This document shows positions 13,807 to 54,405 of a DNA stretch of 64,000 nt, piece after piece; the stretch's first letter is position 1; each line of letters opens with the position of its first letter. The translations under genes and the position numbers were made by a program. The notes under the pieces are model-generated. The model was not told the DNA's origin. It ran no database searches and saw only the letters and a list, made by a program, of their open reading frames with translations. Origin of the DNA: Sphyrna mokarran. Taxonomy: Eukaryota. The stretch lies in NCBI GenBank assembly GCA_024679065.1, contig JAGIQG010000009.1, positions 99,324,001-99,388,000 of the forward strand, written 5' to 3'.

Positions 13807-13839
13807 CTTCAGTTGTGGATCGCTTTAATCTGTTCAAAT
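13807..13839 (-). CDS. Micro-exon 23 (33 nt): (D)LNRLKRSTTE
   Basis: gattttccttcacag|ATTTGAACAGATTAAAGCGATCCACAACTGAAG|gtgaca. Confidence 0.83.
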
Positions 13840-14949
13840 CTGTGAAGGAAAATCAGTTAGATTTCACAAAGCACAACAAGGACATTTTGAAAACAAAATG
13901 TATATATTTTCTTCCCTTTTTTATGATGGAATGCAAACTTTCACTGTCGTTTATAACTAATTCAAAATTACACATGGATTGATTTTCAGTATTTTCAATT
14001 GGGATCGAAGTTGTAGTCCCATTGGAGAAGCTAGAAGATAACAAACGTTTCCTTCAGTCATTTTACACTGAAAATAGCAATAACTCACAGCGATGACAAA
14101 TTTAAGTTAACAGAGAAAAAGGAAAACTAGATCTGGTGAATAGATTTTGGCTTTAACTTCGTCCGCACCACCTGACGCATGCATTTTTGCGAACTTAAGC
14201 TTCAGACAATGCTGCACCCCATAAAATTAATGATGCACGAAACTGACTTTGATCCTATCGAAAATGTTTCGAATATATATACACCTGAAGGGAGAATGAG
14301 ATTAGCACCTTCGTCAAAATTATAATGTTATACAGGAATTGTGTTTAGCTGTAACTTGCCTGTCTAAGTTTTGTTTTTTAATACAGTATTTGTAGCCACG
14401 TTCAGAAATCTGCAGCTGAATACTTTGCAACAGGTTGTGCATCCTTTCATTGCTGAAATTTTCAAATCGTACAGCCAATGTGTTTTTATCGAATTATGTA
14501 ATGCAAGCCCGGGATTTCTTTTCGTTAATTGCAACGTTGCGGAATATATATGGCATTGAGAACAGCGAGGTAGATTTTCAGCGCAGCTTTTGGCATCAAA
14601 GAGGCCATTTGTACTCAGTAGGTTCTGAACATCGCTTGTTGTAGCCGTTCTTTCTCCGTCCACACCTCGGAGAGAATAAAGTATTGCTCACCTCAGTCTC
14701 ACATTGGCACCTTTCATTCTAAACAATTTAATACATTATGCAACAACACACGAAGTATTGAAAATAAGAAGAACTCAAGCCTTTGCAATATATACGGGGG
14801 TAAGTATATCTATACTAAATATTGTCATCTGTTGTACAACATGTTTAAAACAATTGAAACATAATCCACAATTAAATGAGTAAGTAAGATTCTGAACTAA
14901 AGTAAAAACTACAGAGACATATTAGCTTACTGCGCGTTATAACATTTAC

Positions 14950-14976
14950 CAGCTTCTTTCTCATTAAGTTTCAGTT
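14950..14976 (-). CDS. Micro-exon 22 (27 nt): (E)LKLNEKEA
   Basis: cattttctttaacag|AACTGAAACTTAATGAGAAAGAAGCTG|gtaaat. Confidence 0.87.
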
Positions 14977-15182
14977 CTGTTAAAGAAAATGATTCCAGAA
15001 AAATGTATAAATAACGCATCCGCGCTCATTATCGTAATGAAAACAAAACGAAATAACAAATAAATTGAATCTTGATTAATTGATATCCGGTAAATAAAAA
15101 TAGTAACCGTATTTTAAGGAAGGCAAATGACAACAGAAATATTTCCTCTAGAGCATTATTTCAAATACTGTTATCTCTATAC

Positions 15183-15218
15183 CTGCAACTGAGAGGTTTC
15201 TTTCGGAAATACGGAGTT
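15183..15218 (-). CDS. Micro-exon 21 (36 nt): (E)LRISERNLSVA
   Basis: ggttttttttctcag|AACTCCGTATTTCCGAAAGAAACCTCTCAGTTGCAG|gtatag. Confidence 0.85.
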
Positions 15219-17044
15219 CTGAGAAAAAAAACCGTGGTCATTGAAATGCTTTCCATTTCCAAACAAAATTGCGCATGCTCAAAATGATAAATATTTGTTT
15301 TCTGTTGCAGCACAAGTAATTTATTGGAAGACTATTCAGTATCAATATCAAACTAAGCACTACGGGCTAATCATAAACAATTTTGCTCAAGCATAATGCC
15401 TCAGTTCCACTGTAATTATTAAATGATTACATAACGTATTGAACCAATTTGAGGTGTTTGAAAAAACCCCCATAAATATATGTTTCTTTTTCTTCTCAGG
15501 AAAGGGTCATCGCTACGCCTGCAGCAATCGATATCCCATAGTTAGGTCTTCATTCTGTATCACCTGCAAATTTTCGTCATAACATGTTGATAGAAGAGAG
15601 CGAATCCAGAGTTCAATGGTAGGGAATCCAATCAGCCAATATTTGCATAAAGAACGCGATCGAAGTTCCTAAATGATTTTCGCTGATGCCTGCTGAAGTG
15701 AAAAGTTAATATTGCATCACACTCTTTAAATCAACATTATTATGAAGTTTTCAGTTGCTTGGAGAATAGACAGTCAAAATATATGGATCTGAATAAATAC
15801 AATGTGGTTTCCCTTCTTGAAGGAGCAGCAATAAATCAGCTAGGGCTTCAACCTAATCGCGAAACATTTAAATACATTCTCAGGCATTAGTCGACTATTA
15901 CAAGTTTTGTTTATGTAAAGTAGTGTATTTTCTCATACAAAAGCAGACAATATTGGATAAGCTCAAGCGGTCTGACGGTATCCATGGAGAGAAACAGAGT
16001 TAGTATTTCGAATTTAAATGATCATTCTAAAGAACTGAAGAAACTCACTAACATACAGGAGTATGTAATTGTAAATGGGGCAAAAGAAGTGGGGCAGAAT
16101 AGAAGACCAGGTATAGGTCAGGGTAGAGGAGATGTCATCAAATTTGTCATTGACGTCAAACAAAAGTGGAGTTTCATTGGGGATATTAGGAGATTTTTAG
16201 TGGGGTACACGAGGTGACTGATACTGCCTAAAGATTACCTGATACAATATTACTTGATACGAGGCAGGCATCGCGCTATAAAAATGTATCTTTATTTAAA
16301 GCAGCGGCTACCAAGAGTTCATCAAACGCTTAATAGCTCTGACATAGAGCAGCAAAAGTCCTCCGATGAATCTAACATTTAGTATCTAAAACAGATCAAT
16401 TACAGCTTTTTCTTATCAACCAGTCCTGCCATTCAATAAGTTTAAATTAGTCATTGTCAAGATACACAAATCAAGAATAATACCGGACGAAAACTCTGGC
16501 CAGTCGCATTCTAATCCTCAGCATAACGGTATTTTACTAAAATCCAGAAGCTGGCTCCTGTCTTGGCTGACCCCACAACCTGCTTGCTTAATAGCTGCAG
16601 ACGCTCAGCCCAGACTTCAATAAACATTGTCACACGTTCCCTCTAAGGTCACCATCTAGTCAGACTAATGTCACGATACCATGTTTGAGCGTCCGGACAG
16701 TGAATAAATCCTACCCATGAAGTATGATTAAATATTCTCAGTGTTCTTTCCAGCTGAAACTCTACCAGATAAAAAATTCATATTTCCAAGTCCTACATAT
16801 TCTGTTCAAATATGGCTTTGCCACAATGCCATTTACCATGATGACTTGCAGTGAATTGCGTTTGGCCAAAGCGAATCAATAATAAAACATCGAAAATATC
16901 AGCACATGTGTTTTGCAAACATAATCATTCATTTAAATTAATCACTATATCGCATATGAGCACATTGCTCTTGTTAACTTATTTATCAAGTAACTTAATT
17001 TAATGTTGTCAGTGCCTTAATATTTACTAGATTAAAAATCATAC

Positions 17045-17071
17045 CACCCATTCGAAGCTCGATTTGCAGGA
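17045..17071 (-). CDS. Micro-exon 20 (27 nt, possibly optional): (V)LQIELRMG
   Basis: ttgacactcttcag|TCCTGCAAATCGAGCTTCGAATGGGTG|gtatga; in frame, but it breaks the 27/36 alternation. Confidence 0.55.
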
Positions 17072-52199: not shown

Positions 52200-52525
52200 A
52201 GTTTGAGTTCACTTACTAGTGTCATAAGTAGGCTTACATTAACACTGGTACGCTACAAATTTATTGTGAAATCCCTGAGTCGCTGCACTCCAGATCTTGT
52301 TTGCATACACTGAGGGAGAATTTTAGCGTGGCGAAAACGCCTAACCAGTACGTCTTTAGGACATTCGGAGGAAGCCAGAACAGTCAGAGGAAACCCATGC
52401 ATAGAGAGGGAGAACGTACAGGCACCCCAAATACCGTCACTTAAGCTAAGAATCGAGCGTGTGTCCCGAGCGCTGGGCAGCAGCAATGCCGTGTGACTGC
52501 AGTGACCATTGTATCGCTGCGCCGT
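52200..52525 (-). mobile_element. HE1-head SINE with alternative tail
   Basis: gtgtcataagtaggcttacattaacact...gtgaaatccctgagtcgc...gaggaaacccatgc. Confidence 0.7.
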
Positions 52526-53432
52526 CGGTTGTCAGAATTCGCTACCATAAACTGTAACGAAGCTACGCAATTGTACGTTTTCAGGAAGAATTCCGCTATA
52601 AGCACTTAAGGTGAAGGGATTAAAGGATCTGTGGTGAAGATGGGGGTCAGGGATGATCATAATGAATGGCGAACAGTCTCGAAGGGCCGAATTGCCTCCT
52701 TTTTCTCCTATAAACTATGTTTCTATTATCTCCGGAGTCCTGGCAATGATAATGTTTTTCTGAAATGCAGACCTCTTAAATGCATATTAACAGGTCATTA
52801 TGATGTTGTTTTTTCGGTGAACCTATGTGCAGATATGATTTTTGTGTTTCCTGCTTACAACACTGATTATGCTTTAAAAACATTTTATCAGATCTGATTG
52901 ACTTTAGCGAATACTATGGCCTTGAAGAATGAAGTAAAAATACAAATGTTCCCTTTTCCGATTCCTAAGATACGATATTTGAAACTATGTTGCATTGTTT
53001 ACAGTCTCAACGTTGTATTGGACTGTAATTGACGTATACTAACAGGGCGCAACTTCAGATGAAATGCAAAATCTTACTGAGTTTTTTTTGTCTCCTTCCA
53101 ATGGGTTCAATCCTTCATTATTTTCATTGAAACGGCATAGTTTTCGTGAGTTACTAATTGCAAATTGGAAATGGCATCATTTTGCACTGATTTACATATT
53201 TGGATGATAAAGGCAACCAATAGCCTTCATGGCAAATGCATTGAAAATACTGTCGATTTTTCATACGAACCGTGCTGCAAACAGTTTGGACGGCAAATAA
53301 CCGTTTGGACGGCAAGTAACTTATATAAATTACGCTGCCATATAAATTATAAATTGCAGATACATTTACCCATGGCGTAACACAAAGGCACGAGATTATA
53401 ACAATTAATTGTGATATTCTATCAATATGTAC

Positions 53433-53459
53433 CTGCAGTTTTGTTCGAAAGTCGATTTT
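53433..53459 (-). CDS. Micro-exon 8 (27 nt): (E)NRLSNKTA
   Basis: gcattttgttttag|AAAATCGACTTTCGAACAAAACTGCAG|gtacat. Confidence 0.85.
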
Positions 53460-53892
53460 CTAAAACAAAATGCAAAATAACAACATCTTAAATATGATAA
53501 TCATTCTTGTTGTCATAAGAATTCGGCATCACTGGCAGGATCAACATTGATTCAAAGTCTCCAATTGGCCCCTGATAGGTCAAGTCATTTGCTTGTATAG
53601 TTGCAATTAATGGCGCGTGCTTAGACTCACTGTTCCTTTATTGGAAGGACTGGGGAAGGGGCGGGAATTTCATCCCAGTGACGTGTCCAATTGACTGTAC
53701 ATTCCACGGTACACGAATAGAACGAAATGCAACACGTAAAGATAATGCTTATTTATTATCGCTTATTTTGATCACTGCACAATTGAAATGGATCATTTGT
53801 CAATAGTAAACTATTGCTTTACAGAAGGCAAGTTCAGCAAAGAACGTCAAGCTTTAGAGGTATATAAATTAACTTTTGATGATTTTGCTCAC

Positions 53893-53928
53893 CTTTATCT
53901 TGCTGACTGAGAAGTGCAGCGTTCAATT
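53893..53928 (-). CDS. Micro-exon 7 (36 nt): (E)LNAALLSQQDK
   Basis: cttctttttgttttggtaatag|AATTGAACGCTGCACTTCTCAGTCAGCAAGATAAAG|gtgagc. Confidence 0.85.
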
Positions 53929-54378
53929 CTATTACCAAAACAAAAAGAAGAAATTTAAGAGTAAAAAAAGGATCAGTTAATGATATCTTACTGCAAAGCG
54001 TCCAGGAACATATAAACAATATTTTGGATACATGTCGGGTCTATTGCACAGTAAAACTGTGCAAAATTAATTTGATTTTACAAGAATATTATATTATTTA
54101 TGAATTTAATGCTATTGCATTTTTAGAAGGAAGTCAAAACATTTGTTAAATGTCGAAACATCGTATTTCGTTTAAACAATTGATATGAACGGTCTAGATT
54201 TTATTTGGTGCGCAGGTTTCTGGAAAATGAATTAATCAAGATAAAAATATATGCAACAATCTGCACGGAGTAATGACATTTCTACGCAATCAGTTGCATA
54301 ATCAGTAATTTTGTATGATATTAATAAGTTAAAACGGCAGGCAAATGCATTTAACATTAATCAAAATCAATGAGGTAC

Positions 54379-54405
54379 CATTGTCTTTGGCAAGCAGTTG
54401 CTGCT
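54379..54405 (-). CDS. Micro-exon 6 (27 nt): (K)QQLLAKDN
   Basis: attctttttcag|AGCAGCAACTGCTTGCCAAAGACAATG|gtacct. Confidence 0.8.

Follow-up and report, generated by a model that had tools for sequence, protein, structure and literature searches.

The window analysed here, a 64,000-nt stretch of Sphyrna mokarran DNA, is the central part of a ~370-kb elasmobranch gene on the minus strand, which we refer to as gene A. The ends of the gene lie outside the window:

1..64000, minus strand: whole window, inside gene A
~G000:C1548:99,470,454, minus strand: ATG exon of gene A, 82 kb past the window's right end
G000:C1548:99,103,835-99,103,375, minus strand: SPRY exon of gene A, 220 kb past the window's left end

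In our model, a 132-nt start exon leads into 132 phase-1 mini-exons and then into a divergent B30.2/SPRY exon. Among the mini-exons, 72 of 132 are 27 nt long, 33 are 36 nt and 14 are 24 nt; another six, mostly Pro/Gly linkers, are 21 nt. Every mini-exon length is divisible by 3, the frame is uninterrupted across 1,457 codons, and the splice borders are AG..GT in 129 cases and AG..GC in three. Of the 132 exons, 128 are matched by one or more of five proteins from catshark, skate and ray; the remaining four have no homologue match, and some linker exons are probably absent from the model. The 27- and 36-nt mini-exons are genuine parts of a very large shark-and-ray gene for a coiled-coil rod with a SPRY domain. 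The mini-exons in the window are listed below, with the heptad letters at which they are entered and left:

63042..63068 (-): 27-nt mini-exon, e..f
62865..62891 (-): 27-nt mini-exon, missing from ray model P0036
59218..59244 (-): 27-nt mini-exon, e..f
59048..59074 (-): 27-nt mini-exon, g..a, weak donor, located via catshark proteins
54379..54405 (-): 27-nt exon, pair 1 (exon 6 of an earlier, sequence-only reading)
53893..53928 (-): 36-nt exon, pair 1, g..d
53433..53459 (-): 27-nt exon, pair 2, e..f
46565..46600 (-): 36-nt exon, pair 2, g..d
39807..39833 (-): 27-nt exon, pair 3, e..f
39414..39449 (-): 36-nt exon, pair 3; end of coiled-coil segment
33763..33789 (-): possible 27-nt Ser/Gly linker exon, uncertain; no homologue match; 26 nt in paralogue B
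29387..29404 (-): 18-nt linker exon
28874..28900 (-): 27-nt exon, g..a; opens the 27+24+27+27 five-heptad loop
27454..27477 (-): 24-nt exon, b..b, five-heptad loop
23538..23564 (-): 27-nt exon, c..d, five-heptad loop
21388..21414 (-): 27-nt exon, pair 4, e..f
19518..19553 (-): 36-nt exon, pair 4, g..d; 9 residues, not 12, in the S. torazame model
18795..18821 (-): 27-nt exon, pair 5, e..f
15183..15218 (-): 36-nt exon, pair 5, g..d
14950..14976 (-): 27-nt exon, pair 6, e..f
13807..13839 (-): 33-nt exon, pair 6, starts at g; segment end
12477..12512 (-): 36-nt linker-like exon
8519..8545 (-): 27-nt exon, g..a; first exon in the second copy of a duplicated 16-exon block
7795..7818 (-): 24-nt exon, b..b
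3681..3707 (-): 27-nt exon, c..d
2993..3019 (-): 27-nt exon, e..f, EKLLSEKDA
2367..2390 (-): 24-nt exon, g..g

A tandem copy of gene A, paralogue B, has diverged from it faster at third codon positions (64.5% vs 76-79%). Several other paralogues, including those on C668 and at C1548:101.4 Mb, have 27/36 arrays ahead of related SPRY exons; C668 also holds three further SPRY loci. Automated gene models from S. canicula (XP_038671248, XP_038671249, XP_038673008), S. torazame (XP_072329363), Leucoraja (XP_055520637) and Narcine (XP_069775413) are direct homologues, 41-73% identical and with matching exon-sized blocks. They are, however, fragments with generic names (CENP-E-like, EEA1-like, uncharacterized), and no single one connects the N-terminus to the SPRY as the gene A model does. 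Two prokaryote-like repeat proteins among six representative matches (P0037, P0039) were discarded as composition matches, and an alignment chain of B to P0001 past window 192,400 was rejected as noise. We found no paper on gene A or its family in the literature; the family has not previously been described in elasmobranchs, its homologues being known as unstudied gene models only.

Exon lengths in the window and across gene A

The sequence-only reading had proposed an alternation of 27- and 36-nt exons from 13807 to 54405. Both limits are exon ends, 54405 starting a 27-nt exon and 13807 closing a 33-nt exon, and the 17 exons between them measure 27, 36, 27, 36, 27, 36, 27, 18, 27, 24, 27, 27, 36, 27, 36, 27 and 33 nt. 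Five 27+36 pairs and one 27+33 pair are thus present, but the middle five exons (27, 18, 27, 24, 27) do not alternate. The five 9-residue peptides that it quoted are all encoded on the minus strand with AG/GT flanks, although EKLLSEKDA (2993-3019) falls outside the interval. The 12-residue exons do mostly start with EL or EY: among the six of 36 nt in the window, this holds for five. An "exon 20" between 18795 and 15218 found no support: the best candidates there score 1.8 and 2.6, compared with 16.9-32.7 for accepted window exons, and no counterpart exon occurs between these two exons in paralogue B, skate or ray.

A scan for splice sites and composition returned 22 minus-strand matches, none on the plus strand and none in each of 20 Markov-resampled windows, a result that is partly circular, the model having been trained on the same 22 exons. 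The six window pairs have independent support in gap-free alignments with paralogue B, skate P0035 and ray P0036. Across the whole of gene A, a 27-nt exon is followed by a 36-nt exon 24 times (18.0±2.5 in shuffles, p=0.014) and a 36-nt exon by a 27-nt exon 27 times (p=0.0001, exon shuffles); the lengths of neighbours sum to a multiple of 21 nt in 53 of 131 cases (37.2±4.4 in shuffles, p=0.0003).

Heptad register and exon types

The heptads are locked to the exon boundaries, as had been suggested. Codon 4 of the 27-nt exon is hydrophobic in 24 of 24 cases ahead of a 36-nt exon, and 36-nt exons are hydrophobic at codons 2, 5 and 9 in 85, 88 and 70% of cases. The 27-nt exons of type X read e-f-g-a-b-c-d-e-f, and the 36-nt exons (Y) g-a-b-c-d-e-f-g-a-b-c-d. 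Under a Viterbi assignment, a falls on codon 4 in 21 of 24 X exons; the d position is codon 7, yet it is Lys or Arg in 17 of 24. Heptad periodicity is present (period 3.52). Scored with hand-set hydrophobicity weights of our own making rather than with Marcoil or DeepCoil, the real exon order reaches a Viterbi register score of 157.5, compared with 106.6±6.1 in shuffles (maximum 124, n=150), and gene A alone reaches 158.8, compared with 112.8±7.3 in exon shuffles. A per-exon assignment finds neighbouring exons in phase at 37 of 105 junctions (null 20%, p=0.0002), but it mixes a and d in exons with a single hydrophobic residue, and the Viterbi assignment is preferred.

Five exon types can be told apart by their entry and exit letters: 27-nt X (e..f), 36-nt Y (g..d), 27-nt Z (g..a), 24-nt V (b..b) and 27-nt W (c..d). 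Because these letters are fixed, X+Y (21 aa) and Z+V+W+X (35 aa) each form a closed loop that leaves the register unchanged, the latter comprising 27+24+27+27 nt, or five heptads. The prediction that skipping a pair would preserve the register and skipping one exon would shift it was borne out in silico: loss of 27+36 adds no break in 10 of 10 cases, whereas loss of a single exon from the unbroken 28900-15218 stretch adds one break in 7 of 7. In a skate homologue, register breaks are confined to three linker exons across 370 aa, and its AlphaFold2 single-chain model is nearly all helical (pLDDT 77, with the minimum at linkers). On a/d composition only, with Ile/Leu at a and Leu at d, two chains likely form a parallel coiled-coil dimer.

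The B30.2 head and related protein classes

The SPRY exon of gene A scores 32.5 bits against Pfam PF00622 (cut-off 26.3), with no Pfam detection of PRY in this exon; its best PDB matches are BTN3A3, BTN3A1 and TRIM21, and it is 58% identical to catshark XP_038671249. The gene A SPRY forms a clade separate from turtle butyrophilin and TRIM rows (100/100) in a SPRY tree that is midpoint-rooted and whose bootstrap is not fully settled. About 90 SPRY exons surround gene A (C1548:91-112 Mb). The catshark orthologue bears the NCBI name "A33-like", which derives from its SPRY.

For the protein as a whole the BG frame does not fit: Ig and transmembrane exons were not found and a terminal SPRY domain is present. 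Across 864 kb, tblastn with a butyrophilin and four TRIM proteins matched SPRY exons only, and gave no Ig match; no Ig Pfam family appeared in the 150 of 158 upstream ORFs (at least 68 aa) scanned. A V-set search, in which 150 of 1,261 candidates were scored, placed none at C1548:99-101.5 Mb, and a Pfam MHC_II_beta profile search of the genome had no match. Neither RING nor B-box was detected by tblastn with the four TRIM proteins or in Pfam scans of P0004 and P0005. The top 19-residue hydropathy is 1.01 in the gene A model and 0.4-1.35 in six homologues. With Ig, transmembrane, RING and B-box exons all absent from these results, the gene A product belongs with none of BG, butyrophilins and TRIM. 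A type II lectin-like receptor (a Tyr motif, then a transmembrane segment) was also considered and dropped, there being no transmembrane or lectin exon.

According to two reports (PMC5938342, PMC4046983), chicken BG has 21-nt exons (13-37) after an IgV and a transmembrane exon. BG and the soluble "zipper protein" described there resemble gene A in building a long coiled coil from many phase-1 mini-exons; expansion and contraction of exon number is common to both, and BG, counted from an exon boundary at d|e, has its a position at codon 4 and its d position at codon 7, like the X exons of gene A, whose X+Y outer boundary at d|e has the same phase. Unlike BG, gene A has 105 of 132 exons of 27 or 36 nt, its six 21-nt exons being linkers, and its rod is about five times longer, ends in a B30.2 and lacks an Ig or membrane anchor. 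The butyrophilin cytoplasmic tail has "a few" heptads and then a B30.2, behind Ig and transmembrane domains (PMC4046983). Gene A shares this succession of heptad repeats and B30.2, and intracellular BTN3A1/BTN3A3 are the closest solved SPRY structures, but its rod runs to ~1,260 residues and it has no ectodomain. Class IV TRIM proteins, among them the shark "zinc-binding protein A33-like", are organized as RING-B-box-coiled coil-B30.2, with a coil of ~150 residues. Gene A has the coiled coil and C-terminal B30.2 in common with them; it is without RING/B-box, and a mini-exon rod replaces the ~150-residue coil.

The proposed protein and the growth of its rod

With the exon chain, reading frame, homologues, SPRY and heptad phase in hand, we consider gene A to be probably (about 0.72) a functional elasmobranch gene, at least until recently, for a soluble ~1,480-residue rod with a B30.2 head and exon-typed heptads. 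Such a protein would begin with a short acidic stretch that carries the conserved motif DEYINI, continue as a rod of ~1,260 residues whose coiled-coil segments are separated by Pro/Gly/Ser linker exons, and end in a head formed by a divergent B30.2 (PRY-SPRY). Judging from the residues at a and d, two chains would make a parallel coiled coil of up to ~190 nm, pairing two heads and keeping them distant from the N-terminus. By analogy with butyrophilin tails (heptad+B30.2) and with TRIM proteins (coiled coil+B30.2), paired heads may provide avidity and reach toward a putative cytoplasmic protein ligand, and the protein could serve as a scaffold, tether or decoy without a membrane anchor or ubiquitin ligase.

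A decaying locus, with the SPRY end of A gone, the 3' half of B lost or never present and the exon pattern surviving as a relic, is improbable. A TGA does lie within A's SPRY, 23 codons ahead of the domain end, where catshark reads through; B has no SPRY exon, because there is only one in 864 kb; B's counterpart to exon 33789 is 26 nt; and the first five mini-exons of A are more diverged than those of B. Yet the 132 exons of A and 86 of B retain splice sites and an open frame despite an A/B identity of 59%, exon lengths are conserved across shark, skate and ray, and the TGA, which lies in the last exon, may reflect a single allele or a mistake in the assembly. From RNA, one small-share run yielded a single 265-nt identical contig within the SPRY exon, which spans neither the stop nor any exon joint. 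Highly improbable is a BG- or butyrophilin-type membrane receptor with signal, Ig and transmembrane exons far upstream and the mini-exons as its cytoplasmic tail, although the heptads+B30.2 match the butyrophilin tail layout (PMC4046983), the top PDB matches of the SPRY exon are butyrophilins, and the ATG exon is phase-1, with an acceptor and 14 in-frame bases ahead of the ATG in three copies. The tblastn, Ig and hydropathy results (maximum 1.0 over 19 residues) given above speak against it. So do the catshark models, which start at the same Met (P0005 and P0038) or 22 non-hydrophobic residues earlier, and a conserved exon 1.8 kb upstream, near window 148,300, that carries frame-breaking indels and resembles 5' UTR.

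The sequence-only reading took the 27+36 pair as the duplication unit; a strict version, in which duplication and alternative splicing both act on whole cassettes and rod length changes in 21-residue steps, seems doubtful. S. torazame does have an exact additional 27+36 pair (21 aa), 24 of 33 36-nt exons are preceded by a 27-nt exon, the C668 paralogue shows long runs of 27/36 alternation, pair skips are neutral in silico, and neighbouring cassettes are slightly more alike (32%, 6 pairs) than distant ones (23%, 270 pairs). But no more than 48 of 132 exons belong to such pairs, and the significant internal repeats, above null, span 3, 5, 8, 10 and 16 exons, the 16-exon block having identical exon lengths in its two copies at 32% identity (p=0.004 and 0.0014); the sole two-exon repeat scored 45, below the cut-off of 46. 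Loss or skipping of exons in pairs is likewise not supported: among ten differences in the rods of homologues, one amounts to a 27+36 pair, paralogue B lost one 36-nt exon via a ~830-nt deletion and doubled one 24-nt exon, and ray isoform X17 is missing four separate exons, none next to another, of 14, 9, 12 and 9 aa. The 27+36 pair preserves the coil's register, but it is only one building block among several. We infer that X+Y is the ancient building block of the family, and that later growth came mainly by duplicating 3-16-exon blocks, with single-exon gain and loss mostly at or near hinges. The earlier observation of 27- and 36-nt exons is confirmed, and the interpretation placed on it is half right.

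On our preferred reading of gene A as a soluble rod with a B30.2 head, the locus exposes a B30.2 subfamily that public annotation splits into seemingly unrelated fragments, and a butyrophilin-tail layout (heptad+B30.2) without a membrane anchor in elasmobranchs, the lineage most used for studying the origin of jawed-vertebrate immunity. A bolder version, which we regard as rather unlikely, is a giant soluble B30.2 family in which splicing of heptad-grammar exons sets register-neutral ruler or tether lengths. Because all exons are phase 1, B could also splice into A. If true, rod length would be adjustable in 21- and 35-residue loops for an immune-type recognition head, and SPRY-less B spliced into A would give a rod of >2,300 residues from a ~750-kb unit. 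Gene A and its relatives offer a natural test system for the co-evolution of exon boundaries and coiled-coil register: with >130 mini-exons, paralogues and shark-to-ray conservation, tolerated exon gains, losses and skips can be counted.

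Extent, exon structure and relatives of the gene

Gene A, the minus-strand gene of about 370 kb that encloses the window (G000:C1548:99,324,001-99,388,000, in a genome of 2.77 Gb), is an array of mini-exons. The five nine-residue peptides singled out by the sequence-only reading are all encoded on the minus strand, each flanked by AG and GT, and a splice-site scan revealed more phase-1 exons of the same kind throughout the window. In 864 kb of scanned flank, the array continues past the window for 82 kb on the right and 220 kb on the left, and a SPRY exon terminates it on the left side (Pfam PF00622, 32.5 bits; cut-off 26.3). 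Our curated model has a 132-nt ATG exon and 132 mini-exons (72 of 27 nt, 33 of 36, 14 of 24, 6 of 21, 3 of 18, and one each of 30, 33, 39 and 42 nt), with 129 GT and 3 GC donors. Its open reading frame of 1,457 codons is by itself weak support, because candidate exons were selected as stop-free; homologues are the real test.

Protein searches led from the start exon to catshark (Scyliorhinus) XP_038671248 and S. torazame XP_072329363, and from the SPRY exon to catshark XP_038671249 (58%). A full-library search with XP_072329363 gave six matches, four of them elasmobranch (catshark twice, skate XP_055520637 and ray XP_069775413); the other two were unrelated repeat proteins. Aligned exon by exon, 59 of 63 gene A exons matched homologue P0004 and 77 of 80 matched homologue P0001. 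With skate and ray added, 128 of the 132 are matched, the linker matches being weak. The ray homologue, P0036, is labelled "isoform X17", which implies many predicted splice forms at its locus.

Gene B, about 376 kb upstream, lacks a SPRY exon; its 86 exons orthologous to those of A are 59% identical. Since all exons are phase 1, splicing from B to A would stay in frame. Other 27/36-nt arrays lie upstream of related SPRY exons at C1548:101.4 Mb and C668:13.7 Mb. In a 22-row tree whose bootstrap was not fully settled, the SPRYs of gene A, these two loci, two further C668 loci and catshark form a clade apart from the TRIM/butyrophilin rows (100/100).

Features of gene A and its surroundings (L-numbers are flanking stretches)
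L049:9372-9374 (G000:C1548:99,103,372-374): TGA in the SPRY exon of gene A, 23 codons short of the catshark orthologue's stop; the frame beyond still matches catshark
G000:C1548:99,430,501, 99,429,057 and 99,424,344: three successive 36-nt exons, mutually out of phase; gene B lacks the third
L022:4200-4580: conserved A/B segment that includes a common splice donor, 1.8 kb upstream of the ATG exon
Window 49417-51208, minus strand: intronic LINE-type reverse transcriptase element
L020, window-relative 125250-127940, plus strand: second such intronic element, with an unbroken 897-aa frame
Window 51967-52007: intronic 41-nt G run
Window 34577-34656: intronic exact 40-bp tandem duplication
G000:C1548:99,847,429 down to about 99,510,000: gene B, an old tandem duplicate that corresponds to the 5' two-thirds of A
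G000:C1548:99,624,998 and 99,623,374: 24-nt linker exon of gene B, duplicated identically 1.6 kb apart
L109, G000:C1548:100,480,282-392 (100.48 Mb): third start exon, motif variant DEYMNI
G000:C668:8.56, 11.34, 11.88, 11.93, 13.72 and 14.32 Mb; C1548:101.42 Mb: divergent SPRY exons; the two examined both have upstream 27/36-nt arrays
C1548:91-112 Mb: TRIM-like cluster of about 90 SPRY exons
C1548:81.1-81.8 Mb: separate cluster of V-set exons

The TGA may be allelic, a fixed loss or an assembly error. The three out-of-phase exons are candidates for mutually exclusive use. The conserved segment looks non-coding and is probably a promoter with a non-coding first exon.

Coiled-coil register and exon boundaries

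The proposal that pairs of 27- and 36-nt exons (21 residues, three heptads; window 13807..54405) have boundaries keyed to the a and d core positions was borne out. Where a 27-nt exon is followed by a 36-nt one (24 cases), its codon 4 is always hydrophobic and its codon 7 is Lys/Arg 17 times; codons 2, 5 and 9 of the 36-nt exons are hydrophobic in 85, 88 and 70%. These preferences place a at residues 4, 11 and 18 of the pair and d at 7, 14 and 21. Under heptad Viterbi weights of our own, the real exon order scored 157.5 (20 breaks) against 106.6±6.1 (32 breaks) in 150 shuffles; gene A taken alone gave 158.8 against 112.8±7.3. The periodogram has its maximum at 3.52. Over 370 residues of the skate protein, the register is interrupted at three linker exons only; AlphaFold2 models this protein as almost entirely helix, with dips at those three. 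The available text of PMC5938342 puts a and d of the chicken BG 21-nt exon at codons 4 and 7; thus, the outer boundary of the 27+36 pair has the BG phase.

Exon skipping was predicted to preserve register in pairs and to shift it singly. In silico, removal of 63-nt neighbouring pairs added no breaks in 10 of 10 cases. Single removal added one in 7 of 7 exons within the unbroken stretch 28900-15218, but in only one of the 10 others tested, which lie close to existing breaks.

The unit of duplication

The 27+36 pair was also proposed as the duplication unit, and in that form the idea does not survive. Non-overlapping pairs cover 48 of 132 exons (504 of 1,264 residues), the most frequent junction is 27 to 27 (31), and another closed loop, made of 27+24+27+27 nt (35 residues), occurs in register twice within the window. 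Internal repeats exceeding the shuffle cut-off are 10, 8, 5 and 3 exons long; the sole two-exon repeat scored slightly below it. One block of 16 exons (148 residues) recurs with every exon length unchanged (shuffle maximum 14 in 1,000; Markov p=0.004; sequence p=0.0014), and the tail of its first copy supplies the first exons of 13807..54405. Neighbouring cassettes are 32% identical (n=6) against 23% for distant ones (n=270), a likeness that fits an older two-exon duplication.

The six pairs of this region all align without gaps to skate and ray. Ten differences in rod length were counted among homologues; the count excludes changes of linker length, ends that are misaligned, the divergent paralogue P0038 and exons that the gene A model probably lacks. 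Two of the ten are divisible by seven and the predicted pair occurs once, in automated homologue models where gene loss, splicing and annotation error are not separable.

Differences in rod length (residues)
+21, S. torazame: true 27+36 pair
-14, ray: one 42-nt linker
+8, S. canicula
-12, gene B: genomic deletion inside the run of three mutually out-of-phase 36-nt exons
+8, gene B: duplicated exon
-9, -12 and -9, ray: non-adjacent
-17 and -3, S. torazame

Family membership and possible role

With butyrophilin, four TRIMs and one other SPRY protein as tblastn queries, matches in the 864 kb of fetched DNA were to SPRY exons only. Pfam recognised neither Ig nor RING nor B-box among 150 of 158 upstream ORFs, a set drawn from about 60 kb above B and 48 kb above A with LINE-bearing ORFs removed, and no hydrophobic segment was found in the gene A protein. 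These results argue against membership in the BG, butyrophilin or TRIM families. The layout resembles the butyrophilin tail, heptads followed by B30.2 (PMC4046983, in part), but freed from the membrane, and it resembles a TRIM without the ligase. Among the fish TRIMs in the available text of PMC3137616 there is no protein of this type. Our search of literature on shark coiled coils, B30.2 and exons, whose coverage excludes most subscription papers, found no description of the family. Mini-exon coiled coils are known from chicken BG, but no account of the 27/36 grammar, the scale or the soluble rod-B30.2 layout came to light in the literature searched.

The gene A product is a segmented heptad rod ending in B30.2. 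Ile/Leu at a with Leu at d favors a parallel dimer, and two chains would be expected to pair in this way; at about 0.15 nm per residue, 1,264 residues would give a rod of up to 190 nm, hinged at linker exons. The motif DEYINI, shared by A, B and three catshark proteins, near-identical in the third copy and absent from the ray model, fits a phosphotyrosine docking consensus and may be such a site. The ligands of B30.2 domains are proteins, and pairing of the domains raises avidity. From this B30.2 behaviour, the product would most likely serve in the cytoplasm as a long scaffold, tether or decoy. That a rod of this kind can work by itself has a precedent in the soluble BG tail "zipper protein", which, in the available text of PMC4046983, regulates actin-myosin.
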